Source: Candidatus Zambryskiibacteriota bacterium
GTDB lineage: Bacteria; Patescibacteriota; Minisyncoccia; Phycocordibacterales; WO2-35-19
Length of the DNA: 64,000 bases
Reading direction: 5' to 3'
Assembly: GCA_048499675.1 (NCBI GenBank)
Contig: JASNZL010000004.1
Span: forward strand, 28,463-92,462
Part shown: positions 1,318-63,536 of the stretch, piece by piece
How positions within the stretch are numbered: the stretch's first letter is position 1
Layout of the letters: the number at the start of each line of letters is the position of its first letter
The notes under the pieces: model-generated
Told to the model about the DNA's origin: nothing
What the model saw: only the letters and a program-made list of their open reading frames with translations
Database searches by the model: none
Program-made: the position numbers and the translations under genes

Positions 1318-1334
1318 AAACGACACGAATTAGG

Positions 1335-1440
1335 AAACGAGTTACGAAGTACGAGGTACGACAAAAACTTAAATACGAAATTCTAAATCCAAAATCCGAA
1401 ACAAACCATAAATTCAAAATACAAATGTTCAAAACCCTGA
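1335..1440. repeat. Mosaic intergenic repeat block (motif A aaacgagttacgaagtacgaggtacgac plus motif B aattctaaatcc...ataaattcaaaatacaaatgttcaaaa)
   Basis: Near-identical blocks recur at 54492-54575, 55861-55895 and 46640-46703. Confidence 0.7.
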
Positions 1441-1728
1441 AAAATAAAACTATGAAGTAATTTTATTAAGGTTTGAAAGTTTATAAAGTGTAAAAACACA
1501 AAATACAGAAACCAAATTACAAATAAACCACAATAAATAAATTTCAAATAAAAAAATTTAAGTTTTGATATCTTATTTGTTTTATTTATTCCTTATTTGA
1601 ATTTGGTACTTGGGATTTGGAATTTGTTTAGAATAATTAGGCACGCCCTGTAATTTATTATACTACTGGGATCAATTAGAAATTAGAAATTTACTATAAC
1701 CTCTCACCCCCAACCTCTAAGCTTTTTT

Positions 1729-2730
1729 CTAAGGGACTTTGTTAACTACTTCTCCTTTTGAGAAAGAGGAGATATTTTCTGCTGTAGTGTCGAGAATTCT
1801 TTTTACTGCTTCATCTGTATCAAATGCGATATGAGGTGTAATTATAACTTTGGGATGATCTATTAGATAATGATTTGAAAGGGTGATTTTTAGAGCTTCT
1901 AATTCTGGGTGAGGTTGTGTAAGAAGTTTTAATTCATCTGCCTGGTAACCCTCTTCTTCAAGCACATCAAGTCCAGCTCCAGAAAGAATTCCTTCTTCAA
2001 GAGCTTTTACTAGAGCGCTTGTTTTTACTAACCCACCACGGGCTGTATTTATAAGAACGGCACCCTTTTTAATATGATAAATGCTTTCCTCGTTTATCAT
2101 ATGGCGTGTGCTGTCATTTAGAAGTGCATGAATTGTGATAATATCAGAATTACCTAAGAGTTCTTCAAATCCTACATACCGAAATCCGAGCTCTTCGGCA
2201 AGTCCATCTTTGGGAAATGGGTCATAAGCAATCACATTCATACCAAAACCTTTTGCCATTCTTATTGAATTTGTGCCAATCTTGCCCGTGCCAATCACTC
2301 CGATTGTTTTTCCTTTCAAGTCAAAACCTCTGAAATTAGTCTGTGAGAATGAACCAGTCTCTGTCACTTGCTCATGCGCCTCTGGAATCTTCCTAGCAAG
2401 AGCGAGAAGTAGAGCAAAAGCAAATTCTGCTACAGTGTTATCGCCATAAGCGGGGACATAGACAACTTCTATATTTCTCTGCCTTGCTTCCGCAACATCA
2501 ACATGATCAAAGCCAGTTGAACGAGTAGCAATCAGTTTCAAATTTGGCATATTATCCAAATCCTCTTTTTTTATTGGGTGACTTACGAAAACCGATATAA
2601 CCTCAATTTCTTTTAGTATTTCTTCTGGAGTATTTTCTATACTATCTCTAAACTCTAAATTATCACTTCCAAGCTTTTCGCTTATATAAGCCTTCTCCCA
2701 CTCCTCAGTAAATAAATATAATGTTTTCAT
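1729..2730 (-). CDS. D-isomer-specific 2-hydroxyacid dehydrogenase, NAD-binding (D-lactate or glycerate dehydrogenase-like)
   Basis: GVIGTGKIGTNSIRMAKGFGMNVIAYDP Rossmann motif and the catalytic region HIAFDTDEA are typical of the D-2-HDH family. Confidence 0.8.
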   Translation of the reverse strand: MKTLYLFTEEWEKAYISEKLGSDNLEFRDSIENTPEEILKEIEVISVFVSHPIKKEDLDNMPNLKLIATRSTGFDHVDVAEARQRNIEVVYVPAYGDNTVAEFAFALLLALARKIPEAHEQVTETGSFSQTNFRGFDLKGKTIGVIGTGKIGTNSIRMAKGFGMNVIAYDPFPKDGLAEELGFRYVGFEELLGNSDIITIHALLNDSTRHMINEESIYHIKKGAVLINTARGGLVKTSALVKALEEGILSGAGLDVLEEEGYQADELKLLTQPHPELEALKITLSNHYLIDHPKVIITPHIAFDTDEAVKRILDTTAENISSFSKGEVVNKVP

Positions 2731-2785
2731 GCCTTAAGTATAAGTAGCTGGAACATATAGTGCAAGTTAATTATAAACATATTAC

Positions 2786-2803
2786 GTCTCGATGCATCGA
2801 GAC
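2786..2803. promoter_or_regulatory. Perfect 18 bp palindrome gtctcgatgcatcgagac, immediately upstream of the -10 of the TrpR-like gene. Candidate operator.
   Basis: It is its own reverse complement. A tataat-like hexamer follows at 2812-2817 and the gene starts at 2823. A related copy lies at 3268-3285. Confidence 0.5.
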
Positions 2804-2822
2804 ATTTTGATATAATATATAG

Positions 2823-3257
2823 ATGTCCCATATTTCGAAAAGGAAAATAAAAAAGAAAGATTTTGACAATATTTATAATAAGCTTATAGAAATACTTCTT
2901 AAAAATAAGTCAAAAGACGATTTTAGAAAATTTCTAAAAGAATTCTTTTATACAACCGAGAAAATAATGCTAACCAAAAGATTAGCAATAATTTTTATGA
3001 TTATTGAAAAGATTCCTGATAGAAAAATAGAAAAATTGCTTTTAGTAAGTAGGTCTACAATAAATAGAATAAGAAAAAAATGTGAAGGAAGGGAATATGA
3101 TTACATTCATTCTTTAATACTTAGAAATAGAAAAAGTATGTGGGATATTTTAGGTGTTTTACTTTTTGCTACATTTAATCCACCGGCTAGGGTAGGAATG
3201 GCGAGATATAGATGGTTTGAAGATGCTGAAAAAAAATATGCTTCATTCAAAAAATAG
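2823..3257 (+). CDS. TrpR/YerC-like small DNA-binding protein
   Basis: A 144 aa basic helical protein. The motif LLVSRSTINRIRKK resembles the HTH of the TrpR-related YerC/YecD family. It is flanked by two copies of a palindromic motif. Confidence 0.5.
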   Translation: MSHISKRKIKKKDFDNIYNKLIEILLKNKSKDDFRKFLKEFFYTTEKIMLTKRLAIIFMIIEKIPDRKIEKLLLVSRSTINRIRKKCEGREYDYIHSLILRNRKSMWDILGVLLFATFNPPARVGMARYRWFEDAEKKYASFKK

Positions 3258-3267
3258 TTAACGATTT

Positions 3268-3285
3268 GTCTCTATACATCGAGAC
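3268..3285. promoter_or_regulatory. Second copy of the gtctc-N8-gagac motif (gtctctatacatcgagac), between the convergent TrpR-like and ppsA genes
   Basis: It shares catcgagaca(a/t)tttg with the 2786-2803 site. Confidence 0.35.
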
Positions 3286-3360
3286 AATTTGGGTATATGA
3301 ATAATAGTTTAGATATAAAGACACCAAATTATCTTGGTGTCTTTATATATATCATTGTAC

Positions 3361-5763
3361 CTATCGCGCTTCCTCCTCTGCAATTGCAGTAAGCATAGGG
3401 ATTACAGAATCAGGGTTTAGGGAGATTGCTTCGATGTTATTTTGAATTAGGAATCTTGTGAAATCAGGATAATCACTTGGAGCTTGTCCGCAGAAACCAA
3501 TGTATTTGCCTCTTTCTCTACATTTTTGAATTGCCATAGCGACGAGAGTTTTGACGGCTGGATCATTTTCATTTGAAATCGGAGCAACTATCGCAGAGTC
3601 TCTATCAAGTCCGAGAGTAAGTTGAGCTAGGTCATTGCTACCAATTGAGAATCCATCAAAAATGTCTAAGAATTCGTCTGCTCTCAAAACATTGGTTGGA
3701 ATCTCACACATCACGTAAACTTTAAGGCCGTCTTCACCGCGTCTCAAACCTTCTTCAGCCATAATTTCCAAAACTCTTCTGCCTTCGTCCGGTGTCCTGC
3801 AAAATGGAACCATTGGTACAATGTTTTTGATACCAAATTCATCTCTTATTTTTTTGATTGCTTGACACTCCAATCTAAAAGCATCTACGAAATTTGGGTG
3901 AGCGTATCTAGAAGCCCCTCGCCAACCAATCATAGGATTTTCTTCGTCTGGTTCATAATCTTTACCACCAAGAAGGGTAGCGTATTCGTTTGTTTTGAAG
4001 TCACTAAACCTTACAATCACATCACTTGGCCAAAATGCAGAACCAATTTGAGCGATACCTTCTGCCAGTTTATCTACATAAAAGGCGACTTTGTCTTCAT
4101 ACCCCAGAGTTGCTTGTTCAATCTTTTTTTTCAATGTCTCACTCTTTAAGTTATTGAAATCAAGTAATGCTTTTGGATGAACTTTGATGGTAGAGGCAAT
4201 GATAAATTCTTCACGAGCAAGACCGACGCCCTTGTTTGGAATAAAAGAATACATGAAAGCGCTTTCTGGTGAACCAACATTTAGACAAACTTTGGTCCTT
4301 GTCTCAGGTATAGAAGTGATGTCGTGAACGGTCTCTTTCCATTCTAGTTTTCCTTCATAAATCTTACCCGTCGTTCCACTTGATGTGTCTATGGTCAAAA
4401 CATCGCCAGTTTTTATTTTTGATAGAGCATTTCCAGTGCCAATCACAGCAGGAATACCAAGCTCTCGTGAGACAATTGCGGCATGACTCGTCCTACCGCC
4501 TTTTTCTGTAATAATCGCACTAGCAATTTTCATAATTGGTTCCCAGTCAGGATCTGTAATCTCAGTAACCAAAATTTCACCCTTCTCAAATTCGTGGAGT
4601 TTTTTTACATCCGTAATAACACGCGCTTTGCCACTTGCAATCTTTGTACCAACAGCGATACCTGTATCAACAAGTTTACCTTCTGAAACGAGTGCATACT
4701 CTGTGATAGTGAGACGATTCTTTTCTGATTGAACAGTTTCTGGTCTGGCTTGAACAATAAAAAGTTCACCCGTAATACCATCTTTGGCCCATTCAATATC
4801 CATTGGCATATGCTTGCCGGCGTTTTCACTATAATGAGCTTCAATATCCATACCCCAGCGAGCCAAAGTAAGAATTTCATCATTAGTAAGCACATAAACT
4901 TCTCTGTCTTTTTTTAGAACCGGCACTTCTTTTACCGGATTTGTCTTTGTCCCGCTGTAAATCATTTTTGTTTCTTTGCTTCCAATGTCTTTTTTTATGA
5001 TAGGGGAGAAACCATCTTTGAAAGTTTTTTTGAAAACCAAATATGAATCTGGAGTAACCTTACCTTGGACCACCATCTCTCCCAACCCCCACGACGCATC
5101 AATTTCAACCACATCCTTAAAACCACTCTCGGTATCAAGAGTAAACATAACACCAGAAGAACCTTCGTCACTTCTTACCATTTTTTGGACACCTACCGAA
5201 AGAGCCACATCAAAGTGATTGAACCCTTTGTCTACTCTATAAGAAATAGCTCTGTCATTCCAAAGGGAGGCCATCGCTTCTTTGGTAGCTTTCAAAACAT
5301 TTTTGCCACCCACAACATTAAGATATGTTTCGTGCTCTCCTGCAAAACTTGCTCCGGGCAAATCTTCGGCCGTAGCACTACTTCTAACTGCTGTATCAGC
5401 TTCTTTCATGTTATAAGCATTTGATAAGTCGATATAAGCTTTTAGAATTTCTTCTTCTAAATCTTTTGGTAAATCAGAATCTATTATTTTTTCTCTGATT
5501 GCTTTACCAACTTTTTGAAGTTGCTTCACATCATGAGTGTCTAAACCTTCCAAATTCTTTTCTATAAAAGAAGTGAGGCCTTCCTTCTCAATAAAATATC
5601 TATAGGCATATGCCGTGACAGCAAAACCGTTTGGTACCCTAATACCTTTTGGTACAAGAGTTGTATACATTTCGCCGAGAGAGGCATTTTTGCCACCAAC
5701 AAGGGAGACATCCTCTATGTGAAGTTGATCAAACCAGAGTATAAATTTCTTTTCTTTATCCAT
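3361..5763 (-). CDS. ppsA: Phosphoenolpyruvate synthase (pyruvate, water dikinase)
   Basis: 800 aa. It has an N-terminal PPDK_N domain (GGKNASLGEM), a swivel domain GGRTSHAAIVSRELGIPAV, and a C-terminal PEP-utilizers TIM-barrel. Confidence 0.9.
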   Translation of the reverse strand: MDKEKKFILWFDQLHIEDVSLVGGKNASLGEMYTTLVPKGIRVPNGFAVTAYAYRYFIEKEGLTSFIEKNLEGLDTHDVKQLQKVGKAIREKIIDSDLPKDLEEEILKAYIDLSNAYNMKEADTAVRSSATAEDLPGASFAGEHETYLNVVGGKNVLKATKEAMASLWNDRAISYRVDKGFNHFDVALSVGVQKMVRSDEGSSGVMFTLDTESGFKDVVEIDASWGLGEMVVQGKVTPDSYLVFKKTFKDGFSPIIKKDIGSKETKMIYSGTKTNPVKEVPVLKKDREVYVLTNDEILTLARWGMDIEAHYSENAGKHMPMDIEWAKDGITGELFIVQARPETVQSEKNRLTITEYALVSEGKLVDTGIAVGTKIASGKARVITDVKKLHEFEKGEILVTEITDPDWEPIMKIASAIITEKGGRTSHAAIVSRELGIPAVIGTGNALSKIKTGDVLTIDTSSGTTGKIYEGKLEWKETVHDITSIPETRTKVCLNVGSPESAFMYSFIPNKGVGLAREEFIIASTIKVHPKALLDFNNLKSETLKKKIEQATLGYEDKVAFYVDKLAEGIAQIGSAFWPSDVIVRFSDFKTNEYATLLGGKDYEPDEENPMIGWRGASRYAHPNFVDAFRLECQAIKKIRDEFGIKNIVPMVPFCRTPDEGRRVLEIMAEEGLRRGEDGLKVYVMCEIPTNVLRADEFLDIFDGFSIGSNDLAQLTLGLDRDSAIVAPISNENDPAVKTLVAMAIQKCRERGKYIGFCGQAPSDYPDFTRFLIQNNIEAISLNPDSVIPMLTAIAEEEAR

Positions 5764-10398: not shown

Positions 10399-10716
10399 AT
10401 GGAACAAGACGCACAATTTTTAGATTTTGTGGTAAAAGGATTGGTAGACCATCCTGAGGCGGTAAAAATTACAAGAACAGTTGACGAGATGGGAGTACTT
10501 TTAAATCTAGATGTACACCCAGATGATATGGGTAAAATAATCGGTAGAAGTGGTAACACTGCAAAAGCGATAAGAATTTTACTTAGAGTTGTTGGAATGA
10601 AAAACAACGCTAGGGTAAACCTAAAAATCAACGAACCAGAAGGAGGTAGAAGGAGAGAATCTTCTGAGTCACAAATGAAATCAGTTGACGATGTAATGGA
10701 AGATTTGAAACTATAA
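10399..10716 (+). CDS. KH-domain RNA-binding protein (YlqC/KhpA-like)
   Basis: IGRSGNTAKAIRILLRV contains the GxxG KH motif, in the conserved position between rpsP and trmD. Confidence 0.8.
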   Translation: MEQDAQFLDFVVKGLVDHPEAVKITRTVDEMGVLLNLDVHPDDMGKIIGRSGNTAKAIRILLRVVGMKNNARVNLKINEPEGGRRRESSESQMKSVDDVMEDLKL

Positions 10717-10832
10717 ATCGAGTTGCGAAGTACGAGATACGTGTAACAAAAAACAAAAAAGTCCTTAGTGGACTTTTTTGTTTTATTGTGTTATCTTTAA
10801 TATAAGCTTTAAGCCCTTATCTCTAAGTTTTT

Positions 10833-12420: not shown

Positions 12421-12717
12421 ATGAAAAATCCAATTAAAAACGAGCTTGACTTCCTTATAGCTCAAACTCAAAACGAAACGGACATAGCAAAGGAAATCGT
12501 GGAGAGCATAAGGAAGAAAAAAGATTACCACGAAGAAAAACTAGCATTAAAGATGCTTGAATTTTATAAGTGCGAGGAGAAACTCATATCCCTTTATGCA
12601 GAAGCAAAAAACACTTATCCTTTACTTGCTGAACTGATGGAAAACAAAAGACCATACCTTAAGGAAATGCTAGAAGAAGCAAAGAGGTTGTATGAGAAGA
12701 ATATTTTAGGAAAATAA
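12421..12717 (+). CDS. Hypothetical helical protein
   Basis: 98 aa ORF with no homology recognised. Confidence 0.3.
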   Translation: MKNPIKNELDFLIAQTQNETDIAKEIVESIRKKKDYHEEKLALKMLEFYKCEEKLISLYAEAKNTYPLLAELMENKRPYLKEMLEEAKRLYEKNILGK

Positions 12718-12826
12718 TTTTCAATTCATAATTTTGTAATTTTTTAATGAATTTTCATTGTATTAATTTTAAAATTACAAATTTATTCATTATTTAAAAA
12801 TTTTAAATTAAAAATTAAAAATTTTT

Positions 12827-13906
12827 ATGCACATAAATACCGATTTATTAGAAAAACATTTAAACAACATCCGAGAGCTACAGGCACCAACTGGTCTTTT
12901 TCTTGCCTCTCGCAGTGACGTTAGTACGGGATACAACAAAGCGTGGCTTCGGGATAATTTCTACACCTGTCTGGCTTTTGAGGAAATTAATGATATTGAA
13001 ACTGTAAAAAAAACATGGAAAGCAATACTGCAAATTTTTACAAAGCATAAAGATAAATTGAAGTGGGCTTCTGCAAACAAACCGTACGAAACTTTTCAAT
13101 ACATACATGCTCGCTACAATCCAGAAACATTTGAGGAATTTTGGGAAGAATGGGGGAATAAGCAAAATGATGCAGTTGGAGCCATTCTATTTAAGATTGG
13201 AGGTTTGGAGAAAAAGGATATAAAAATAATAGAGACCGAGGAAGAAAAAGAAGTAGTACAAGAACTAATTAATTATCTTGGATCTATAGAGTATTGGCAT
13301 GATCCAGATAATGGAGTATGGGAAGAATATGAGGAGGTTCATGCTTCTTCTGTTGGGGCTTGTATTGCCGGTCTCCGCACCATATCTAAACTTGGTATTT
13401 TTGATGTTCCCCTTGAGTGGATAGAAAAAGGAGAAGAATCATTAGAACAACTTTTACCAAGAGAATCCAGAACAAAATTCGTTGATTTGGCGCAACTTTC
13501 TCTTATTTATCCATTTAATGTAGTACCAGAAAAAATGGCGCGAGAAATAGTAAGACACTTAGAATACCACCTCGAAAAAGATAGGGGAGTAATAAGATAC
13601 AAAAACGACAGGTATTACAACAAGAATGCTGATGGATATAGTGAAGAGGCGGAATGGTGTTTTGGTTTTCCTTGGCTTTCTATTATTTATGATTACTGGG
13701 CAAATGATAAATTAAAGTTTGGCAATATTACTGATGAAGATGACGCTCGAAAAGCAAAAGAATATTTAGAGAAAAGTGTGAGAACGATACACAATGATAA
13801 AATTCCTGAACTCTATTACTCAGATTCAGAAGTACCAAATGATAATACTCCGCTAGGTTGGGCTGAGTCACTTTTTGTAGTAGCTCTATTAAAATCAGGA
13901 TTGTAA
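12827..13906 (+). CDS. Glycoside hydrolase family 15-like (glucoamylase/trehalase-like alpha/alpha barrel) protein
   Basis: NKAWLRDNFY and HDPDNGVWEEYEE resemble the GH15 catalytic-acid region (xWEE). Confidence 0.5.
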   Translation: MHINTDLLEKHLNNIRELQAPTGLFLASRSDVSTGYNKAWLRDNFYTCLAFEEINDIETVKKTWKAILQIFTKHKDKLKWASANKPYETFQYIHARYNPETFEEFWEEWGNKQNDAVGAILFKIGGLEKKDIKIIETEEEKEVVQELINYLGSIEYWHDPDNGVWEEYEEVHASSVGACIAGLRTISKLGIFDVPLEWIEKGEESLEQLLPRESRTKFVDLAQLSLIYPFNVVPEKMAREIVRHLEYHLEKDRGVIRYKNDRYYNKNADGYSEEAEWCFGFPWLSIIYDYWANDKLKFGNITDEDDARKAKEYLEKSVRTIHNDKIPELYYSDSEVPNDNTPLGWAESLFVVALLKSGL

Positions 13907-13991
13907 ATGTAAAGAATTTTCACTCTCCTTGTAAGAGTTTTAGTTTTGTAATTTTATATATATAAAAGTTAAATAAAAATTCACTATAGGT

Positions 13992-44100: not shown

Positions 44101-44134
44101 TAAATTATTCCAAAATTAACATTAACCAAAAATT

Positions 44135-48290: not shown

Positions 48291-48527
48291 ATATAAGAGA
48301 TAAGATATAAGAGATATGAGGATGATGGTTTGAAAGTTTATAAAGTTGGAAAGTTCATAAAGTTACCCACTAATCCGCGAATGCACACTAATCATACGAA
48401 TAAAAACCGGAAATTTAAAGATTGAATAATTGAAAATTTAAACAATATTTAAAAATTAAAAATTACAAAATTAAAAATTGATTAGTAATTAGTTATTCAT
48501 AACTCGTACTTCGTTACTTCGTATATC
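48291..48527. repeat. Repeat block (motifs D, C, E and a reverse-complement copy of A) preceding direct repeat 1
   Basis: gttacccactaatccgcgaatgcacactaatcatacgaataaaa matches 55937-55985. cataactcgtacttcgttacttcgtat is the reverse complement of motif A. Confidence 0.65.
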
Positions 48528-48557
48528 ATGATCGACATCGTAAAAGTATTTTTGCCG
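48528..48557 (+). repeat. Direct repeat 1: exact 30 bp copy of the 5' end of mraY (atgatcgacatcgtaaaagtatttttgccg)
   Basis: It is identical to 54775-54804. The match extends to 34 bp with one mismatch (tat[c/t]atg...). It lies in the intergenic region upstream of the dikinase operon. Confidence 0.85.
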
Positions 48558-48633
48558 CTAATTTACAATTGGAATTTGGAATTTATTTAAAATAATTAGG
48601 ATAATTAGAATAATTGTATTTAAACTTCGTATC

Positions 48634-51015: not shown

Positions 51016-51017
51016 TT

Positions 51018-51815
51018 ATGGAAGGGTTAAATCAGGAAAATCAAGAGAGTAGAGAAAACGGTAAAAATGTTCATATTAAAACCCAATTTCTTAGACACGG
51101 AGAAAAAAGCTCATTTTATGGGGATTTGAGTGAAAAAGGAATTGAAGATGCTAAAAAGTATGGGAGAGAATTTCCGTCTTCAGAGGGTGGTGTAAAAGGA
51201 TTTCATAGTCATATAAAAAGGTCAAAAGATACATTAGAAAATATTATCCAGGAAGTAGAATCAGAGAAGAAATATAAATCCAGACCACGTAATGAACTGC
51301 TACTTAACGACCCAGGTGAAATATCTTGGTCGGAAGAATCAATAAAAAAATACAGAGAACTAACAGAAAGCCATAAAGGCGATGAGAATGCTGCTTTAGA
51401 CTGGTATTTATCTTATGGCGATAAAAGGCCTGATCAAGATACTATCTCGCCGAAAGAAGCGGCTACGAGAATAGCTCGCTTAATTGAGAAGTATACGCGC
51501 ATGGTTGCTCGCCTAAAAAGCAATTCATCTGTTGATTTTATACACGTATCACATTCTGGAACAATGGAACCATTCCTTCAACAAATTATAGGTGATGAAA
51601 TTGAAGAAAACCCCATAAACCCAGCTGGAAAAACTTTTCTTGAAAAACTTGGTGGAGTAATAAATTTTTTGGAAGGATTCCAGATTGATGTAAAAAGTGA
51701 TGAAAATGATAATATTATGGCCGAACTTACTTTTAGAGGGCGTAAATTCTCCATAGACCTAAAAAAATTGGAGGAAATAACATTCTACGATCGGGATGTT
51801 AATAATGATGAATGA
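51018..51815 (+). CDS. Histidine-phosphatase superfamily protein (PGM/SixA branch)
   Basis: FLRHGEKS is the RHG catalytic motif and VSHSGT is the second His. It overlaps the next gene by 4 nt (ATGA). Confidence 0.55.
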   Translation: MEGLNQENQESRENGKNVHIKTQFLRHGEKSSFYGDLSEKGIEDAKKYGREFPSSEGGVKGFHSHIKRSKDTLENIIQEVESEKKYKSRPRNELLLNDPGEISWSEESIKKYRELTESHKGDENAALDWYLSYGDKRPDQDTISPKEAATRIARLIEKYTRMVARLKSNSSVDFIHVSHSGTMEPFLQQIIGDEIEENPINPAGKTFLEKLGGVINFLEGFQIDVKSDENDNIMAELTFRGRKFSIDLKKLEEITFYDRDVNNDE

Positions 51816-52945
51816 CTATGAAAATTGAGGATATCAAAAAAGAAAATTGGCAGTATCTGGCAAGTAGAGAAATCCCAATTCTGTTTGGTTCATTGGTCAC
51901 TCAAAGTTATAAAGAAACTTTTCCCAAAACCGGAATAATTGGGATAGAGGCGGCACTAGGAACCGATATTATTAATTGTGGAAAATATTTAGTCTTTAGG
52001 TCATACAGAAAAGTATCTGCCCTCAATAAATCTACAGAATTTTTTGTAAAAACTTTTAAACACAATCCAGAAAGAGTTGATAATATCTTTAAATTAGCAG
52101 CGGCGGCAACGGATAGTGCAAATCATAATATTTCTAAATTATCCAAAATATCAGATTATTTAACAAAAAAAGACTTAAAGAGTTTTTACTTCTTATTTAG
52201 AGAAGCTTTCATATCATTTTTCCCATTGCAAGTATTTCCATTCTCGTTAGAGCAAGTATTAAATGGGGCAGGAGAAGTAGATTTAGTGAATCAATACAAG
52301 GATATTTTGGTTAAATGGAGAAGTGAAGTGCATGATACCGAAATAAAACTAGAAGATTTCTTGGGAATATTTTTAAATAAAGCAAAAGAACTCTTAAATA
52401 TAGATTTTAGATACTGGTCCGATAAAGAAGTGTTAGATTATTTCAATACTTCTGCTGTTGTCCCCGATACCACAATCAAAAACAGGAAAGAATACTCTGT
52501 GCTTGTTTTTGATACCAATTTGACACCTCCTTACCAAGTTATTGATGGTACAGATGCAGAAGAAATTTGTACTTTTATGGACGAACCAGTTAAAGAAAAA
52601 GTATTTGGAACAGAATTTAAAGGAAGGCCTGTATATCCCGGCCATGTTAAAGCAAACGTTTTTTTAATAAATAAAAAAGAAGATTTTAAAAATATCCCTG
52701 AAGAATCTGTAGTGGTCGCCCGCGTTATTGAAATGGACGATATCAGATGGATTAAATTAAAAAAAATTGCAGCAGCCATAACGGAGGAAGGTGGGCTTAC
52801 AACTCATATAGCAATTATGGGACGTGAACTTAAAATACCGACGATAGTAGGAGTTAAGGGTATCGTTGAATCAGTAAGAACAAATGATACATTGGATGTG
52901 GATTCTGAAAATGGGCTAATTAAAATTATCAATAAATTACAATAA
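51812..52945 (+). CDS. PEP-utilizing-enzyme swivel (phosphohistidine) domain protein with an uncharacterised N-terminal domain. Paralog of the C-terminal part of 48634-51015.
   Basis: The C-terminus SVVVARVIEMDDIRWIKLKKIAAAITEEGGLTTHIAIMGRELKIPTIVGV is a swivel domain. There is no ATP-binding domain. Confidence 0.6.
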   Translation: MTMKIEDIKKENWQYLASREIPILFGSLVTQSYKETFPKTGIIGIEAALGTDIINCGKYLVFRSYRKVSALNKSTEFFVKTFKHNPERVDNIFKLAAAATDSANHNISKLSKISDYLTKKDLKSFYFLFREAFISFFPLQVFPFSLEQVLNGAGEVDLVNQYKDILVKWRSEVHDTEIKLEDFLGIFLNKAKELLNIDFRYWSDKEVLDYFNTSAVVPDTTIKNRKEYSVLVFDTNLTPPYQVIDGTDAEEICTFMDEPVKEKVFGTEFKGRPVYPGHVKANVFLINKKEDFKNIPEESVVVARVIEMDDIRWIKLKKIAAAITEEGGLTTHIAIMGRELKIPTIVGVKGIVESVRTNDTLDVDSENGLIKIINKLQ

Positions 52946-52954
52946 TTTAAAATC

Positions 52955-53962
52955 ATGCAAACATATAAACAAGTTTATACAAGAGAAGTTTGTTTAATCG
53001 CCCTTGAAATTTGGGAGGAGCATCAGTTGCACCTTCTTAAAGAAGTTTTCGGAGATGTGCCACCACTTTCAATTTTTGACGTCTATGGAGGTGTAGGTAA
53101 AGTTTATTACCAAGAGGACACACAGGATATATGGTCCAATATTATCGCTAACAAAGCTAATAAAGATTTATCTTTTGTGCCTGAGCAGATGGAATTACTT
53201 GGCAAGAATGTAGATAGGCTTGAAAAAATTTGGCACCAAAAGAAGCTTTCTTCCAGAGAAGAAGTCGTCGATTTGTTTTCACTAGCCGCTTGGACTTGGG
53301 TTGGTGTTTCCGTCTCATATTTCCTGCCAGACATAAAAGATGTATCTCAAAAAGACCAGGATTTGGGCATGGCTTTACGAAATCGCACCTTAGACTTCCT
53401 TGAATTCACCGACCATGTTTTACAGGACACACTTAAAGATCTTTACCCTAATCTTGGCGATTTGGTCAAATATATATCAATTGATGAATTGAAGAGAAAT
53501 GAGATCCCAAATGAAGAAGTTTTGAAAGAAAGAGAGAAACATTACATTTATTACGATTTTAAGATTCACACTAACATAAGCATAGCTGAATTTTTGAAGG
53601 ATAATAATATTGAAATTAAAGAAGATGCTATTCCAGAAAATCTAAAAGAAATAAAAGGGCAAACCGCTATGGGCGGTAAAGTCACGGGTCCTGTTAGGAT
53701 TCTGCATAAAAAATCAGAGATTCCAGAATTACTAGATGGTGAAGTTTTGGTTGCTACAATGACTACTCCCGACTATCTACCGGCCATGAATAAAGCCATA
53801 GCCTTTGTAACTGACGAAGGAGGTGTAACTTGTCATGCTGCTATCGTGGCTAGAGAAATTGGTAAACCTTGTGTTATAGGAACAAAAATAGCAACAAAAG
53901 CACTCAAAACCGGTGATATAATAGAAATTGACGCTGATGCCGGTCTTATCAAAATTTTGTAG
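52955..53962 (+). CDS. PEP-utilizing-enzyme swivel (phosphohistidine) domain protein with an uncharacterised N-terminal domain. Second paralog.
   Basis: The C-terminus EVLVATMTTPDYLPAMNKAIAFVTDEGGVTCHAAIVAREIGKPCVIGT is a swivel domain. Confidence 0.6.
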   Translation: MQTYKQVYTREVCLIALEIWEEHQLHLLKEVFGDVPPLSIFDVYGGVGKVYYQEDTQDIWSNIIANKANKDLSFVPEQMELLGKNVDRLEKIWHQKKLSSREEVVDLFSLAAWTWVGVSVSYFLPDIKDVSQKDQDLGMALRNRTLDFLEFTDHVLQDTLKDLYPNLGDLVKYISIDELKRNEIPNEEVLKEREKHYIYYDFKIHTNISIAEFLKDNNIEIKEDAIPENLKEIKGQTAMGGKVTGPVRILHKKSEIPELLDGEVLVATMTTPDYLPAMNKAIAFVTDEGGVTCHAAIVAREIGKPCVIGTKIATKALKTGDIIEIDADAGLIKIL

Positions 53963-54183
53963 ACAAAAGACCGCTCCGAAGAGCAGTCTGTTTCTCACCT
54001 CCTTTCTGGTGAATTAAGCCTCTTGATTTACGACCGTGGCTTAGTTTGGGTCGGTTCTTTTTCATTGTCCTTGTTGTTGGGTTGCTCTGTCCGCGTTTGC
54101 GAAACAGGTTTTTGTTGGGGCCGATCCTTACGGATAACCCCCACAAATCGCAAGCCACCACGCGATCCGAATCCGGCCATGTT

Positions 54184-54381
54184 CTACCCCTTTCTTTTCT
54201 GTTCTGCTTGTCTCACCACTTCCTCGAGCGAGATGTCATTCGGAGTCCCTCCGGAAATCGAAACGAGGAATACGATGAAAATAGCAGCACCGACCCCCCA
54301 GTGGATGAAATAGCTAGCAGCCAAACAGGCAACAACCATCATCAGAGAAACGAGAAGGATAGATTTGTCTTTGGGTGTCAT
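54184..54381 (-). CDS. Small two-TM membrane protein in a GC-rich segment
   Basis: The 65 aa reads SILLVSLMMVVACLAASYFIHWGVGAAIFIVFLVSISGG. The overlapping + strand ORFs look non-protein-like. There is no clear RBS. Confidence 0.25.
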   Translation of the reverse strand: MTPKDKSILLVSLMMVVACLAASYFIHWGVGAAIFIVFLVSISGGTPNDISLEEVVRQAEQKRKG

Positions 54382-54419
54382 ATCTAAATACTATTATACA
54401 CAAAACTACCATTCTGTCA

Positions 54420-54774
54420 ATAGTAAAAAATTAATAAATTTATATAGTTTATCTCTGAAATTTAGGGTATTATGAGAGATACGGGTTCAAAAAACGAGAT
54501 ACGAAGTACGAGATAAGATAAAATTCTAAATACGAAACAAATTATAAATTCAAAATACAAATGTTCAAAAATAGATAATTTAACATGGAATTTGTGTTTT
54601 AAATAATAAGATTGGTAAACATTAGTAATTAATGAGTTAGAATTAAAAATTAAATCATTGAAAATTTATTGAAAATTCTAAATTGGAAATTGAAAATTTA
54701 TTAGCGAAATTAGCGTGCATTAGTGGATTGGTGGGTAGTGATTTTACACTTTGATATTTAAATTTTAAATTATT
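54420..54774. repeat. Repeat block (A, B, C, E, and D in reverse complement) preceding mraY
   Basis: aaacgagatacgaagtacgagataag, attctaaatacgaaacaaattataaattcaaaatacaaatgttcaaaa and the attgaaaatttattgaaaattctaaattggaaattgaaaattt motifs are present. Confidence 0.65.
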
Positions 54775-54804
54775 ATGATCGACATCGTAAAAGTATTTTT
54801 GCCG
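54775..54804 (+). repeat. Direct repeat 2: the first 30 nt of the mraY CDS, identical to 48528-48557
   Basis: Exact 30/30 match with copy 1. Confidence 0.85.
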
Positions 54805-55836: not shown

Positions 55837-55860
55837 CGCGACACAAATAAACGATTATGG

Positions 55861-56030
55861 AAACGAGTTACGAAGTACGAGATACGAGTAACGATATATT
55901 TGAAATTAAAAATTGAAAGATTGAAAATTAAAATAAAAAACAAAAGTAACCCACCAATCACACGAATTTACACGAATCATAACGAATAAATATTAGTAAG
56001 ATTAGTATGCATTAGTAATTGGTGTGTTGT
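55861..56030. repeat. Repeat block (A, C, D, E) between mraY and ftsW
   Basis: aaacgagttacgaagtacgagatacgagtaacgat and gtaacccaccaatcacacgaatttacacgaatcataacgaataaa are present. Confidence 0.65.
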
Positions 56031-56044
56031 GGTAGAATAATAAA

Positions 56045-57151
56045 ATGAAAAAAACTGGAAAAATAAGTAGGCCTTTTTTGTTTTGGACAATTGTACTTGT
56101 TGTTTTTGGTTTTTTTATTTTTAGTTCAGCATCACTTGGAGTACTTGCAAGAAACGAAATAAAATTTGCAAACGTCGCCTTTAATCAAATATTTTTTGGA
56201 CTTTTTTTGGGCTCAATTGCTTGTATAATCTTTGCTCGCATTGATTACAAAATTTGGAAAAAATATGCATTTTATATTTTTATTGGCTCAATTGTTTTAA
56301 CCTTACTGGTATTTATTGACGCCCTAAGTCTCACACACGGCGGAGCAAGACGCTGGATAAATTTGAAATTTATATCTTTCCAACCATCTGAATTTTTAAA
56401 GATTGGATTTATTGCATATTTTTCTGCTTGGCTTAGTAGCATAAAAACAAAAGTAGAAACAATAAAATGGGGACTTTTTCCTTTCCTTTTATTTATGGGA
56501 ATTGTTGGTGGGATTCTGCTTGCTCAACCCGATACGGACACATTTGCTGTGATTATTTTTGCGTCCCTTGCAATATATATATCGGCTGGGGCTAGATGGA
56601 AACATATAGCGTCTATTGTTTTAATTGGTATTGCAATTATTACAATTTTGGCATTCACGAGACCTTATATTATGCAGAGAATACAAACAATGATTGATCC
56701 AAGCGCCAATGTTCAAACTACTGGATATCAATTGAGACAATCTCTTATTGCTGTTGGCTCTGGACAGATGTGGGGTAGGGGATTTGGTCAAAGTATTCAA
56801 AAATTTGAATATTTACCAGAGCCAATTGGTGATTCAGTTTTTGCTGTAGCAGCTGAGGAATTTGGTTTTGTGGGAGCAGTCACACTTATGTTCGTATTCG
56901 TAATGTTTGCACTTGAGGGAATAAAGATTGCAAACAGAGCACCTGATGATTTTGGGAAATATTTAACGCTCGGAATTATTGTAATGATAGTGTCGCAGGC
57001 TTTTTTGAATATCGGAGGTATGATAGGTGTTTTGCCACTAACGGGTATACCTCTGCCTTTTATAAGTCACGGTGGGACCGCTTTGTTTATAACCCTTATT
57101 GAAGTAGGTGTTATAATGAATGTGTCTAGGTCTGGAGGCACAAGAGGATAG
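56045..57151 (+). CDS. ftsW: SEDS-family peptidoglycan polymerase (FtsW/RodA)
   Basis: Ten TM helices. The conserved C-terminus PLTGIPLPFISHGGTALF is present. It lies between mraY and murG. Confidence 0.85.
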   Translation: MKKTGKISRPFLFWTIVLVVFGFFIFSSASLGVLARNEIKFANVAFNQIFFGLFLGSIACIIFARIDYKIWKKYAFYIFIGSIVLTLLVFIDALSLTHGGARRWINLKFISFQPSEFLKIGFIAYFSAWLSSIKTKVETIKWGLFPFLLFMGIVGGILLAQPDTDTFAVIIFASLAIYISAGARWKHIASIVLIGIAIITILAFTRPYIMQRIQTMIDPSANVQTTGYQLRQSLIAVGSGQMWGRGFGQSIQKFEYLPEPIGDSVFAVAAEEFGFVGAVTLMFVFVMFALEGIKIANRAPDDFGKYLTLGIIVMIVSQAFLNIGGMIGVLPLTGIPLPFISHGGTALFITLIEVGVIMNVSRSGGTRG

Positions 57152-57202
57152 CAGAATTTCCAATTTTCAATTTAAAATTTTCAATAAATTTTTAATTTAA
57201 AA

Positions 57203-57577
57203 ATGACTCAAACGGAGAAAAAATACGACTTGGAAGAAAGAACAGCTGTTTTTGGAGAATCAATTATAAAACTTTGTAGAAGTATAAAACAAGATAATAT
57301 AACTGCTCCAATAATAAACCAGCTCATCCGCTCTGGTACGAGCATCGGGGCAAATTATATGGAAGCAAATGGTGCAAGTTCAAAAAGGGATTTTGTAAAT
57401 AAGATTTTTATTTGTAAAAAAGAATCTCAAGAAACCAAACATTGGCTCCGTATGCTTTCTCTGAGTGTTACAGAGAACATTAAAGATGAATTAGAAAAAA
57501 TATCAAAAGAATGTCAGGAACTCGTGTTTATATTTCAGAAAATTGCTAGCACATCAAGAAACAATGAAAAAATATAG
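57203..57577 (+). CDS. Four-helix-bundle protein (TIGR02436, the family found in 23S rRNA intervening sequences)
   Basis: IGANYMEANGASSKRDF...ICKKESQETKHWLRML is the hallmark pattern of this family. It is inserted between ftsW and murG. Confidence 0.7.
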   Translation: MTQTEKKYDLEERTAVFGESIIKLCRSIKQDNITAPIINQLIRSGTSIGANYMEANGASSKRDFVNKIFICKKESQETKHWLRMLSLSVTENIKDELEKISKECQELVFIFQKIASTSRNNEKI

Positions 57578-57695
57578 CGAAAGAAGTTTTACAGGAATGT
57601 TATTAATTATGTTAAAATTTGGGTAATTAATTGAAAATTGAAACATTGTAAATTTAATGAAAATTCTAAATTATAAATTGAAAATTTAAAATAAT

Positions 57696-58879: not shown

Positions 58880-59030
58880 AAACTCTAAACAATAAAAACA
58901 TAAAAAAATTCAAATCTCAAAATTTTTTTAATTTTTAATTTTTAATTTAGAATTTTAAATAAATTTTCAATGGATTTAATTTAAAATTTAATCCTTACTC
59001 GTAACTCGTGTTTCGTAACTCGTCTCTTTT
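58880..59030. repeat. Repeat block (motif C plus a reverse-complement motif A) upstream of gltX
   Basis: ccttactcgtaactcgtgtttcgtaactcgtctc is the reverse complement of motif A. It is followed by TGTGCTATAAT, an extended -10, at about 59027-59038. Confidence 0.55.
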
Positions 59031-59046
59031 GTGCTATAATGAATAA

Positions 59047-61637: not shown

Positions 61638-61672
61638 TTTGCAAAATTTTTAAATAAATTATAATTATTTAT

Positions 61673-61951
61673 ATGCCATTCAAAAAAAGTAAATTTAGAA
61701 GGGGAGCCGGTTTTATCCAAATTACTCTCATAATCGTGGGAGCTCTGGTTATATTGAAGTATGCCTATGATATAGATATCGTCGGATACTTAACCACAGG
61801 CAAATTTAGAGAGTATCTTGATAAGTTTTACTTTTTAGGATTGAAGGGCTGGAACAACTACAGCGACACAATAATCAATGTATGGAACATGACAGTCGAT
61901 TTTGTGAAAAATCTACTATCAAAGAGAACGGGAGAGAGTGTGGAAATATAA
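61673..61951 (+). CDS. Small membrane protein, hypothetical
   Basis: 92 aa with one TM helix (GFIQITLIIVGALVIL). Confidence 0.35.
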   Translation: MPFKKSKFRRGAGFIQITLIIVGALVILKYAYDIDIVGYLTTGKFREYLDKFYFLGLKGWNNYSDTIINVWNMTVDFVKNLLSKRTGESVEI

Positions 61952-62105
61952 ACCAATATATAAATATAATTAGTGCCTAAAACAAAAAAATATTAAGAGG
62001 GAAGAGTTATAGGTTTGTGCTAAAGGTTTATTTAAGCCTTATTTTTATATGATTTAATGTGACAAAAGATATATTGTGGGACATTACTAATCTTTCTACA
62101 TAGAG

Positions 62106-62114
62106 TTATCCACA
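62106..62114 (+). promoter_or_regulatory. Isolated consensus DnaA box TTATCCACA
   Basis: Exact 9-mer in the 460 bp intergenic region between 61951 and 62411. Confidence 0.3.
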
Positions 62115-62377
62115 GGTACATAAAATGGATTGAATAATTTTTAATTAACCACTTCCCTCGGACTAAGTCTTCCTCAAAATATTTTAGTGATTATTTTTAT
62201 TTTATTTATTAAATCAGAATTAAATTTTGGAGAGAGTAGGGCTCCACGAAGAAAGTCTCTGAGATTATAAGAATCTCAAATATCTAAACTAGAATTTTGT
62301 TTCTTATTACTTCCCCACTCGAGCGTACTCTCAATTGATTGGCATACTTGAAAGTAATAGTATTTTTTGCAAACAAA

Positions 62378-62408
62378 AATTCCGCAGTAAGGCGGAATTT
62401 TTGTTAAG
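62378..62408. terminator. Bidirectional intrinsic terminator (aaaaattccgc-agtaag-gcggaatttttg)
   Basis: An 8-9 bp stem flanked by A- and T-runs, immediately 3' of the minus-strand gene that ends at 62411. Confidence 0.6.
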
Positions 62409-62410
62409 TA

Positions 62411-63016
62411 TTATTTCATTGCTAATTCTTTGTATTCAGAATAAGCAACTGATTTTGACCAACATGGTGAAGATGATATCCAAGGCTGTACTCCTGATTT
62501 CTCATAGATGTACCTTGCATAAGCTGTATTGCCTTCGATAGTTAATATGTCATAACCAAGTTTTTTTGAGTCTTCCAAATGGTAGAACTCATTTACCTGC
62601 ATAACACCTCTATCAAGACTATTTACTTCTCCTCTTAAGACTTCGCCATTTTCGTCGTGCTGACGAAATCTAGATTCACACCAAGCAATCTCAACCATTA
62701 TAGGTATGTCTGAAAAATAATTTCTAACATACTCCTCAACTGTAATACTTCTTTCTACCTGTGTTTTCTTATCTTCTTTAGGTAGTGTTTCTTTTACTTC
62801 TATTCTTTCCGGCTGAATTAAGGGAACAACATTATTCTTTGTTCCAAATCCGGTAAAGCTAGATGCTATCATTAGCATCCCCACAGCAGTAGTTTGAAAA
62901 ATAAGCCAATTGTTTAATTTTAATCTCGGTATAATAACTATTTTTATCTCCCCTATTTTATTAGTAGAAGAATAGTTATAACCAAGGAATCCGAAGTGAA
63001 AGTAATTCATAAACAC
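62411..63016 (-). CDS. Membrane-anchored lysozyme-like / lytic transglycosylase (GH23-like) domain protein
   Basis: IAWCESRFRQHD...RGVMQVNEFYH matches the E-S...G-x-MQ(I/V) pattern of SLT/GH23 domains. There is an N-terminal TM helix. The start codon is uncertain. Confidence 0.45.
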   Translation of the reverse strand: MFMNYFHFGFLGYNYSSTNKIGEIKIVIIPRLKLNNWLIFQTTAVGMLMIASSFTGFGTKNNVVPLIQPERIEVKETLPKEDKKTQVERSITVEEYVRNYFSDIPIMVEIAWCESRFRQHDENGEVLRGEVNSLDRGVMQVNEFYHLEDSKKLGYDILTIEGNTAYARYIYEKSGVQPWISSSPCWSKSVAYSEYKELAMK

Positions 63017-63411
63017 GAACCTAAGTTTTTAGTTTATGCTTTACACTCTAGACTCTAGGTTTTAGGCCATATAATGACCTATCCCCTTTTAAACGCAAAA
63101 TCCAGCTATATACTGGACTCTTATACAAGTATAGCATACTTTAGACTTGCCGTCAAGCCCAAAATATGGTCAAATAATAACGGCCATTGATACGAAAGAC
63201 ATACGAAATAATACGAAAAGCTACGAAAATTGATATAAATAAAAAAGTTATACAGTACCCATAAATTACTAATTTATAAATACCAAATTACAGTATCCAA
63301 ACTACAAACAATAAACAAATAACAAAATACAAATCCTAAAATGTTTTTTGTGCTTTATTTACTGTGCTTTTTTGTGTTCTGTTTACTGTGTTGTGTATAT
63401 TTATTGTTTTA

Positions 63412-63536
63412 ATTTTCAATCTTTCAACCTTCAATCTATCGTACCTCGTTTCCCCAATTCGTGTCATTCGCCCGCCTGCAACGCCTGAAGCGTAGCACTG
63501 GCGGGCAGGCATACATTCGTGTATTGGTGTCGCATA
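63412..63536. repeat. Motif A/C (reverse complement) plus a motif F copy with a GC-rich internal insertion
   Basis: aattcgtgtcattcgc[ccgcctgcaacgcctgaagcgtagcactggcgggcaggcatacattcgt]gtattggtgtcg. Upstream is ggggaaacgaggtacgatagattgaaggttgaaagattgaaaatt in reverse complement. Confidence 0.5.

Follow-up and report, generated by a model that had tools for sequence, protein, structure and literature searches.

Degenerate heptamer arrays in the gene spacers of a Zambryskiibacteriota bacterium: motif C as the probable arms of a mobile PF05635 cassette

What are the AT-rich repeats that lie between the genes of a Candidatus Zambryskiibacteriota bacterium, splitting operons that are tight in its relatives? 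The DNA in question is a stretch of 64,000 nt (contig JASNZL010000004.1 of assembly GCA_048499675.1, positions 28,463 to 92,462), called here the window. An earlier note on it had described six submotifs, A to F, recurring in twelve spacers and had proposed a system resembling transposable elements of the miniature inverted-repeat kind (MITEs) or repetitive extragenic palindromes (REPs). Our own reading, to which we assign a probability of roughly 0.6, is that the repeats are degenerate heptamer arrays and that one of them, motif C, forms the inverted arms of a mobile cassette that carries a four-helix-bundle (4HB) gene of family PF05635 and resembles the intervening sequences (IVSs) of rRNA genes. 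L-numbers below label loci or contigs from other genomes that were compared with the window.

Are the repeats real, and are they dispersed? The motifs are present at every position given for the twelve spacers, and the description of them as dispersed, modular, and oriented both ways holds: self-BLASTN (E ≤ 1e-3) gives 49 matches, 38 of them between one spacer and another, against 0–1 in 20 dinucleotide-preserving shuffles of the spacers. A repeat search of the window places direct families D1–D8 and inverted pairs I1–I13 among the repeat spacers. Low complexity does not account for the matches, because 20 of them survive DUST masking (including 45527–45692 versus 46786–46620 and 55860–55945 versus 59026–58933), and a local duplication is excluded, because copies spread across 1.3–63.5 kb and recur in other genomes. 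Some of the shared blocks are long and are not simple tandem repeats (46686–46784 versus 54601–54699, 84% over 101 nt; 1334–1577 versus 54478–54702).

What is the repeating unit? Within the repeat spacers, identity at lags of 7, 14, and 21 nt is 0.447, 0.382, and 0.365, respectively, against ~0.30–0.33 at other lags, whereas in the other 4.9 kb of intergenic DNA no lag stands out (0.28–0.30 throughout, 0.292 at lag 7); Tandem Repeats Finder likewise reports period-7 arrays in the repeat spacers. The motifs are degenerate arrays of 7-nt units: (ACGAGNT)n in A, (AAATNCN)n in B, (AAAATTG)n in C, and (ATTAGTA)n in E. The D/F arrays are ACGAAT-based with a period of 9–10 nt, a spacing near which E also falls, and a further motif, G, has a period of ~17 nt. 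The six submotifs do recur, but they are not all separate: D and F are each other's reverse complement, and E is reversed D in an ATTAGT variant. The earlier list also lacked three copies: an ORF-less motif C hairpin (12710–12831; ORF, open reading frame), a C-like array (13938–13983), and a motif A array (40283–40314). Some modules probably share an origin, but a set of distinct heptamer arrays describes them better than a single mosaic element would. A designed bracketing of every gene by inverted repeats (scpA, mraY, ftsW, the 4HB gene, murG, and the gene at 12827) was considered and dropped, being indistinguishable from chance because about 12 spacers carry arrays in both orientations.

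What distinguishes motif C is the gene that it encloses. The ORF at 57203–57577, earlier regarded as merely flanked by repeats, is the core of an element ~530 nt long. It encodes a protein of 124 aa that matches TIGR02436 (cut-off 24 bits; E = 8.6e-21) and PDB entry 2RLD, the gene call carries a PF05635 match, and 46 alignment columns are invariant among 32 homologs. The left arm occupies the entire gap from the ftsW stop codon to the 4HB ATG, and the right arm stops 4–10 nt before the murG ATG; together they form inverted pair I11 (57156–57202 with 57646–57692; 47 nt, 74% complementary). The element ends in a perfect 12-nt terminal inverted repeat, AATTTYCAATTT...AAATTGAAAATT, and since homology among three independent insertions (window, L127, and L128) starts and stops at these termini, we set its bounds at 57155 and 57686. 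The minimum free energy fold closes the cassette with a predicted arm–arm stem (window arm duplex, −22.3 kcal/mol). No promoter of the cassette's own was found.

Does the window contain other copies of these arms? An arm profile built from other metagenomes, excluding the window and its relatives, matched seven places at E ≤ 0.01 and one weakly (E = 0.39): 12710–12780 (+), 12767–12831 (−), 46724–46785 (−), 48442–48483 (−, the weak one), 54642–54704 (−), 57148–57203 (+), 57620–57687 (−), and 58930–58979 (+). It matched nothing in 10 shuffled windows. In all, then, the window has a single intact cassette, a single hairpin without an ORF, and several solo arms; the solo arms look like scars and now lie directly against the start codon of a downstream gene. 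There is just one 4HB gene, and neither tblastn nor hidden Markov models detected 4HB pseudogene remnants in the other window spacers. At least the motif C family is part of a mobile element, one that has inverted repeats at its ends and miniature forms lacking the ORF.

How general is the association of gene and arms? Within Patescibacteria, scanning metagenomes with a 4HB alignment brought up 80 loci at 59–86% identity; the arm-pairing statistics use 74 cassettes and the specificity test 70 loci. Nearly every 4HB gene in the scan has (AATTTNC)n against its ATG and a complementary array after its stop codon. The arm-pairing score averages 23.3, versus 11.5 for shuffled partners and 14.8 in direct orientation, and a gene's own arm partner outscores permuted ones, the observed mean being reached in 1 of 2,000 permutations. 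Identity at lag 7 is 0.527 upstream and 0.459 downstream of the gene, compared with 0.27 within it. An arm score of at least 16 is found at 89% of the 4HB loci but for only 2–3% of the other genes in the same loci (P = 2e-24), and the predicted RNA duplex of the arms averages −26.3 kcal/mol over ~40 bp versus −14.7 for shuffled partners. The units of the two arms covary (AATTTTC/GAAAATT, AATTTTG/CAAAATT, AATTTAA/TTAAATT, CAGTTTT/AAAACTG), and unit type tracks the clade of the 4HB protein. Genes next to the 4HB gene form 106 clusters, and 128 of 135 such neighbours point the same way as it does.

Does the cassette move? Close 4HB homologs (88–95% amino acid identity) occur elsewhere with the same arms and 3′ tail: the site is ftsW|murG in the window and L132–L137 and pilB|pilC in L127–L131 and L187, with arms, tail, and ORF conserved. 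All three parts keep an equal identity of 90–95% at different loci and hence move as a unit. Fourfold degenerate sites of the 4HB gene are identical at 36 of 46 positions between the window and L127 and at 28 of 41 between the window and L128, compared with 46–48%, which is saturation, for the host genes ftsW, murG, and pilC on the same or neighbouring contigs. Given this low divergence at different insertion sites, the cassette has been exchanged among lineages far later than the lineages split, and these comparisons show a mobile, horizontally transferred unit. Its cargo is modular. In the window, the ftsW|murG spacer holds arms and the 4HB gene; L132 has a 190-aa ORF in addition to these, L119 has the arms with an unrelated membrane ORF, L125 has the right arm alone, and L122 has a 27-nt mini-array; the modularity follows from L187, which pairs a 4HB gene with a homolog of the L119 membrane ORF. 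L122 and L132 are the sole empty/filled pair available for comparing junctions, and the empty site is itself the mini-array. This array (L122 11111–11137, cagaatttagaattttaaatttatttt) has ends that match the outer ends of the insertion in L132, a close relative of L122, and it may be either a site that the cassette prefers as a target or a footprint of excision. A supposed empty pilB|pilC site in the window was rejected, since the ORFs in question are dnaG and rpoD rather than pil genes.

A number of results weigh against reading the repeats as we do. L119 keeps both arms around an unrelated membrane ORF with no 4HB gene between them, so the arms need no 4HB gene in cis. No target-site duplication is shared by the three independent insertions. 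No catalyst of mobility was identified, the 124-aa helical bundle being no known recombinase. Fold z-scores are weak (−1.47 for the whole cassette and −1.19 for the motif D/E hairpin upstream of ftsW), the arms are only 82% Watson–Crick paired over ~39 nt, and their mismatches (77 G·U versus 85 A·C) show no bias toward pairing of a sense RNA. Among the population copies L128–131 and L132–137, a small sample, the arms do not vary in copy number, and short-term slippage was not seen. Lastly, in 116 motif-A loci (0.82 Mb) only 2–3 4HB genes occur and orphan arrays are far commoner; since orphans so vastly outnumber ORF-bearing copies, a cassette origin of A, B, D/F, E, and G is not shown.

The absence of a G·U excess, together with the 82% pairing and the weak z-scores, leaves selection for an RNA stem unsupported. 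RNA-level selection on arm pairing gave no signal in the mismatch test, and significant RNA structure found no support at z-scores of −1.2 to −1.5, the sole exception being a GC-rich mini-hairpin (−2.07) described below. A role of the inverted arrays at the level of DNA is at least as likely as an RNA stem.

Is the cassette, then, a classical nonautonomous transposon, a MITE or a REP/REPIN (REPIN, paired REP sequences) that is moved in trans by a transposase or REP-associated tyrosine transposase (RAYT) encoded elsewhere, with the 4HB gene as passenger cargo? It shares much with such elements, being short, dispersed, and intergenic and having terminal inverted repeats, hairpins, ORF-less hairpin copies, and variable presence among relatives; its 12-nt termini are perfect, its cargo varies between the same arms (4HB; 4HB plus membrane ORF; membrane ORF; 4HB plus HD-like ORF), and the equal frequency of G·U and A·C mismatches fits a symmetry at the DNA level. 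Our scans for transposase, RAYT, reverse transcriptase (RT), and rRNA genes covered the 64-kb window alone, and a transposase could lie elsewhere in the genome. In the window, no RAYT or transposase was found among the ORFs other than an unrelated IS30-like remnant. Where a MITE has an autonomous transposase parent, the full-length form here encodes the 4HB protein, a small helical protein, and sometimes small cargo ORFs, and where REPs have 20–40-nt palindromes, there are tandem heptamers: the ends are 40- to 60-nt arrays of 7-nt units rather than defined termini. No target-site duplication accompanies the three independent insertions; the 4HB gene is a constant partner across phyla despite wholly different arm sequences, which is unlike passenger cargo; and a sense orientation of 95% is unusual for DNA transposons unless imposed by selection. 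We regard a trans-mobilized transposon as quite unlikely. What survives of the MITE/REP-like system proposed earlier, for the C family, is inverted ends, ORF-less copies, and mobility; what does not is the rest of the likeness, there being no transposase or RAYT linked to the repeats in the window, no target duplication visible at three insertions, ends of the array type, and no encoded recombinase.

A lineage-specific MITE was rejected for motif A, since the same (GTACGAR)n array occurs in >116 loci from many phyla; a scan of species genomes found it in Bacteroidota, Verrucomicrobiota, Gemmatimonadota, Acidobacteriota, Patescibacteria, and others. Combinations of D-head, D, G, and A are restricted to the close clade of the window. 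Integron attC sites, retrons, group II introns, and TnpB/omega-RNA were rejected because there is no integrase, RT, or nuclease gene and the ORF has an inverted arm on either side. As to the IS30-like remnant, the ORF at 24602–25150 has HTH_38 and HTH_32 domains and showed no link to the heptamer arrays; in our reading, the domains would be typical of the N-terminus of an IS30-family transposase, the next 400 nt resembling its degraded C-terminal part (24602–25567 in all).

Could the arrays instead be ordinary, immobile heptamer repeats made by slippage, the 4HB genes having a preference for inserting into the loops of heptamer hairpins that were already there, as with the loops of rRNA helices? 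Heptamers are overrepresented in many bacteria, often as gene-less convergent pairs, for example 70–75 in Xanthomonas (PMC4692102). In other phyla, motif-A arrays are mostly orphan hairpins that come right after a stop codon, orphan arrays greatly exceed ORF-bearing copies, and the empty L122 spacer is itself a mini-array, all of which a slippage origin would accommodate. It accounts poorly for the ~100-nt composite, nontandem blocks common to spacers (84% over 101 nt), which shuffled spacers lack, for the constant 90–95% identity of arms, tail, and ORF across loci, which implies that they move together, and for an arm unit type that tracks the 4HB protein clade. Nor do the population copies vary in the number of arm units. 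Between L001 and L002, contigs that are 99.2–99.96% identical, no length variation or indels were found in the arrays, and hypervariable repeats of the contingency type were rejected for want of length variation between close strains. An origin by slippage with later insertion strikes us as unlikely.

How do the arrays sit in the operons? The GC content of the window is 31–38%, and its housekeeping genes are divergent (pyk, trmD, rpoB, rpoC, dnaG, rpoD, hisS, a short aspS, scpA, scpB, a dac-like gene, mraY, ftsW, murG, and gltX). Homologs of the FtsW protein at 67–82% identity belong to organisms named Parcubacteria, Zambryskibacteria, or Paceibacterota, which makes the host a Patescibacterium; a cyanobacterial origin, suggested by the likeness of the repeats to cyanobacterial ones, was rejected on these homologs. 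One of these, the Zambryskibacteria contig L122 (ftsW 70% identical), has the gene order pif1, methyltransferase, trpS, aspS, scpA, scpB, dac, mraY, ftsW, murG, gltX, M23, with spacers of 1–40 nt throughout. The window keeps this order with repeat-bearing spacers of 118–390 nt, which bears out the earlier claim that the repeats split operons and indicates that the arrays widen the spacers of an ancestrally tight operon. Beyond the L122 order, the window has an ATP-binding cassette (ABC) transporter (41990–43771), a 6.2-kb island with a phosphoenolpyruvate (PEP)-synthase-like gene, and the 4HB gene. Relatives at 80–82% identity (L119 and L125/L126) have the same motifs in orthologous spacers, but rearranged, the L119 mraY–ftsW spacer being the reverse complement of window 48385–48525; in a 75% relative (L120) the motifs are absent. 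Repeat blocks are 88–97% identical between genomes in which ftsW DNA is 75% identical and its third codon positions are 50–54% identical.

Such conservation raises a further possibility, that the repeats are cis-regulatory elements under host selection (internal promoters, A/U-rich translation leaders, terminators, or mRNA-stabilizing stems). The repeat blocks remain 88–97% identical where synonymous sites are saturated. The D/E hairpin (55946–56031), for instance, is kept at 88–93% in L125 (1–105), L126 (30–135), and L119 (3900–3962) with synonymous sites saturated, and its region is 88% identical to the 82% relative L126 versus 51% at ftsW third codon positions; it may be a regulatory leader or a recently shared repeat. 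Right arms stop 3–10 nt short of the start codons of scpB, murG, and the gene starting at 12827; motif A comes after a stop codon at 1318, 10716, and 55861; and in other phyla the arrays form hairpins right behind stop codons. The conservation would be explained equally well if a mobile unit had been transferred recently, though, and relatives with the same genes in a tight operon lack the elements. Promoter-like sites are not enriched (63 versus 54.9 ± 7.0 expected), nothing in the window matches an Rfam family, fold z-scores are weak (−1.47 and −1.19), and the arrays occur in both orientations relative to transcription. We think host regulation very unlikely to be the explanation. A promoter or terminator function was rejected, the arrays not being terminator-like, and no known RNA family or tRNA was found in the window.

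Do arrays of other sequence accompany 4HB genes in other phyla? A tblastn search of plasmids with a Bacteroidota 4HB protein gave 20 records, of which 12 were fetched and examined. In 12 of 12 the gene is flanked by inverted, lineage-specific heptamer arrays (Cyanobacteriota, Chloroflexota, Bacteroidota, and Spirochaetota). The units are AATCCCC/AATCGTA in Planktothrix; AATCTAA in Chlorohelix and Gloeocapsa; TAGTGAT, 17 times, in Bernardetia; AATTCGT, CAGATTG, and GTCGGAG in Nostoc; AAAAGTA in Anabaena and Nostoc TCL26; and CTCTCCG in Treponema. The plasmid genes usually stand in sense orientation inside operons, including DISARM/BREX and DUF1156–HEPN loci; in the cas2–cas1 cases (Anabaena and Nostoc TCL26) the 4HB gene is antisense between the cas genes. 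Cassettes within defence loci were seen on Planktothrix, Chlorohelix, Gloeocapsa, Anabaena, and Nostoc plasmids (L218–L220, L225, and L228), at sites between DISARM drmD and BREX pglX and between DUF1156 and Swt1–HEPN genes, the latter site being identical in a Chloroflexota and a cyanobacterial plasmid.

Several other motifs of the window have counterparts among 4HB arms elsewhere: motif A in two genomic 4HB genes that are flanked by motif-A arrays (L085 and L041), B in Planktothrix and Chlorohelix, D/F in the ACGAATT of Nostoc, and E in Bernardetia. We tried the idea that a 4HB gene stands beside most motif-A arrays and rejected it on the count of 2–3 in 116 loci. As arrays, motifs A, B, D/F, E, and G belong to one class with motif C, but they are orphans, for which neither mobility nor derivation from a cassette is shown. 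In one of the two genomic cases, L041 (an Acidobacteriota metagenome-assembled genome), an insert of ~200 nt at ~1755–1975 interrupts the 4HB gene; it is bounded by ~30-nt perfect inverted repeats (tagtgtagtgtccaataaataactggactat...) and resembles a distinct miniature element sitting within the cassette.

Which known element does the cassette most resemble? S23p/4HB proteins of PF05635 have been known from rRNA IVSs since the 1990s; they are multicopy in many genomes and functionally uncharacterized (PMC4990558, PMC11270868). The IVS of Coxiella 23S rRNA has the same ORF family, terminal inverted repeats, excision by RNase III, and tandem GACAGAT heptamers before the ATG (PMC4990558), and 23S_rRNA_IVP ORFs lie in 16S and 23S insertions of candidate phyla radiation (CPR) bacteria (PMC11270868). 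Beyond the PF05635 ORF (S23p/23S_rRNA_IVP in Leptospira, Coxiella, Xanthomonas, Brucella, and CPR), IVS and cassette share complementary termini that form a stem, ORF-less versions, a sporadic horizontal distribution, and a sense orientation inside the host transcript. They differ in setting, as the cassette lies between protein-coding operon genes (ftsW|murG, pilB|pilC, and ~100 other contexts) and the window contains no rRNA; in arms, which are 40- to 60-nt degenerate heptamer arrays whose mismatches carry no RNA-specific signature, excision by RNase III being putative; and, with respect to Coxiella, in the protein, which is strongly conserved in cassettes and decaying there.

The arms invite a second comparison. 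Cyanobacteria have been known since 1990 to carry tandem repeats of heptamers (Mazel), and in 2007 such repeats were found overrepresented in many bacteria (Mrazek), both as cited in PMC4692102, which describes them as having no known mechanism or function. Like these short tandemly repeated repetitive (STRR) sequences, the window arrays consist of imperfect tandem 7-nt intergenic units in both orientations, often in inverted pairs, lie between co-oriented genes, and have lineage-specific units. Unlike them, they have AT-rich units (AATTTNC, AAATCCG, ACGAGNT, and ATTAGTA), a patescibacterial host, ~100-nt blocks shared between spacers, and a link to a PF05635 cassette, and the copy-number variation between close strains that marks slippage was absent from our small sample. 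A third relative is Avd of the diversity-generating retroelements, a homologous, PF05635-like four-helix-bundle protein (PMC10053308); in our case the ORFs scanned include no RT domain, the window has neither template repeat nor variable repeat, and the 4HB gene is by itself within its arms, flanked by ftsW and murG. We would best class the element as an IVS/S23p variant that lies outside rRNA, with arms that belong to the STRR/heptamer class of simple-sequence repeats. In the literature that we searched, which was incomplete, no paper linked PF05635 genes with heptamer arrays in general.

How might such a cassette work? Avd binds nucleic acid and the RT of its retroelement. By analogy with the IVS, which relies on transcription of the rRNA, the cassette would be transcribed by read-through from the host operon without a promoter of its own, and its arms would pair into a stem of ~40 bp. 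RNase III might then release it from the polycistronic RNA, leaving the flanking cistrons functional, as in the IVS; alternatively, the arms may serve as inverted DNA ends made of iterated 7-bp binding sites. Recombination at the arrays would spread the cassette, both horizontally and within genomes. Loss of the ORF and left arm would leave right arms behind, and the initiation region of the downstream gene would then depend on the right arm. Orphan arrays of other units could be scars of decayed cassettes, products of slippage, or both.

Table 1. Repeat features of the window, with positions counted from its first nucleotide
Feature	Position	Strand	Evidence and remarks
Complete 4HB cassette	57155–57686	+	left arm, PF05635 ORF, tail, right arm; termini AATTTCCAATTT ... 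AAATTGAAAATT
Cassette left arm, (AATTTNC)n	57152–57202	+	arm-profile nhmmer E = 2e-9; ~95% identical to L119 and L132 at the orthologous site
4HB gene (PF05635/TIGR02436, S23p)	57203–57577	+	TIGR02436, 74.2 bits; PDB 2RLD, E = 7.5e-15
Cassette right arm, (GNAAATT)n	57620–57692	+	nhmmer minus-strand E = 3e-5 and 8e-3; ~96% identical to L119
ORF-less hairpin, left arm directly followed by right arm	12710–12831	.	nhmmer on both strands, E = 1.8e-4 and 5e-3; just upstream of the gene whose start is at 12827
Solo right arm, motif C, directly against the scpB ATG	46724–46790	+	nhmmer E = 6.9e-10; aligns with the 3′ part of the cassette; 84% over 101 nt to 54601–54699
Solo right arm, motif C, 5′ of mraY	54637–54704	+	nhmmer E = 3.5e-10; aligns with the 3′ part of the cassette
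Degenerate motif C array resembling a right arm	48411–48483	+	weak nhmmer match, E = 0.39; families D1 and D3; separates dac from the PEP-synthase-like island
Solo array oriented as a left arm (reversed motif C), 3′ of murG	58923–58989	+	nhmmer E = 4e-5; inverted pairs I2–I4
Motif A array, (ACGAGNT)n	1335–1361	+	family D2; inverted pairs I7, I10, I22, I23
Further motif A	10716–10741, 54492–54518, 55861–55894	+	
Further motif A	48495–48522, 58989–59026, 63436–63456	−	
Motif A (ACGAGGT) × 4.6, in a methyltransferase coding sequence	40283–40314	+	Tandem Repeats Finder, period 7, 96% matches
Motif B array, (AAATNCN)n	1369–1435	+	families D4 and D20; inverted pairs I1, I5, I15; self-BLAST 1334–1577 versus 54478–54702
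Further motif B	46620–46715, 54519–54570	+	
Further motif B	1590–1640, 45597–45692, 48569–48615	−	
Motif D then E, local imperfect hairpin 5′ of ftsW	55946–56031	+	sequence reading; fold z-score −1.19
Further D/F	48362–48404	+	
Further D/F	45717–45753, 54699–54739, 63457–63532	−	
GC-rich mini-hairpin inside a D/F array	63472–63509	−	fold −34.2 kcal/mol; z-score −2.07
Motif G, period ~17, GTTGGAAAGTTCATAAA	48322–48363	+	family D10; Tandem Repeats Finder, period 17
Further motif G	1465–1489, 46597–46626		
Further motif G	45680–45712	−	

The motif A array in the methyltransferase gene (Table 1) is in frame and encodes ERVTRYEVRGT, in a linker that varies between methyltransferase orthologs in a protein alignment; heptamer arrays are therefore tolerable inside a coding sequence. 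The GC-rich insertion in one motif F copy, given earlier as 50 bp, is confirmed as a hairpin of ~38 nt. A GC-rich palindromic mini-element of this kind (~33–42 nt, CCTGCCCGCCA...GGCAGGCGGG) is nested in different arrays: a D/F array in the window (63472–63509), motif G in L129 (~964–1005), and a 4HB left arm in L156 (~40–75). Other small GC hairpins are nested in arms of L185 and L212. Reportedly, the small dispersed repeats (SDRs) of Nostoc are likewise very small palindromic inserts inside other repeats (Elhai et al. 2008). We liken them to the nested mini-hairpin only, which is known here from three copies; its sequence differs and its host is a Patescibacterium.

Other insertions into the same gene order were also seen. 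Direct repeats at 48524–48557 and 54771–54804, identical at 33 of 34 nt, consist of the first 30 nt of mraY and 4 nt upstream. They flank the 6.2-kb segment (48634–54387), which holds the PEP-synthase-like gene, a histidine phosphatase, and two PEP-utilizing mobile-domain proteins; L119, L120, and L122 are without this segment at the mraY site. The segment resembles an island that entered at the 5′ end of mraY and left the start of the gene restored. Three PEP-utilizing mobile-domain segments share ~66% DNA identity (50781–50982, 53737–53938, and 4436–4572 on the minus strand), two in island genes and one in the pyruvate phosphate dikinase gene (3361–5763); these are coding paralogs outside the intergenic repeat family. 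The ABC transporter (membrane and ATPase domains; region 41990–44134) separates trpS from aspS, two genes that adjoin each other in L120 and L122; a terminator-like hairpin with a 20-bp stem follows it (44048–44092), and its flanks are without heptamer arrays. In groundwater Patescibacteria (L132–L137, 1514–4840), the dac–mraY–ftsW–murG operon has also gained an NYN-domain gene, an MNT/HepT toxin–antitoxin pair, and long nonrepeat spacers. In this clade, accessory genes seem to have landed in the operon repeatedly.

What would the association mean if it were general? Six phyla are represented among the sampled PF05635 genes that lie between inverted heptamer arrays, and we consider this cross-phylum rule the most interesting outcome of the analysis. 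Tentatively, and at somewhat less than even odds, such genes may constitute a widespread, unrecognized mobile cassette that dwells in operons, of which the rRNA IVSs would be a special case; the cassettes and their derivatives (decayed, ORF-less, or reduced to solo arms) might then be a major source both of the excess of heptamer repeats and of multicopy 4HB genes, with the 4HB protein binding or propagating 7-nt arrays. In that event, the origin of heptamer repeats and the function of PF05635 would become one testable problem, with a concrete pair of cis-element and protein and an annotation rule for a very common class of intergenic repeats. It would also explain genes that split operons and defence loci (BREX/DISARM, cas1–cas2, and DUF1156–HEPN). 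For the genome-reduced CPR bacteria, it would mean that selfish elements expand essential operons that are otherwise tight.

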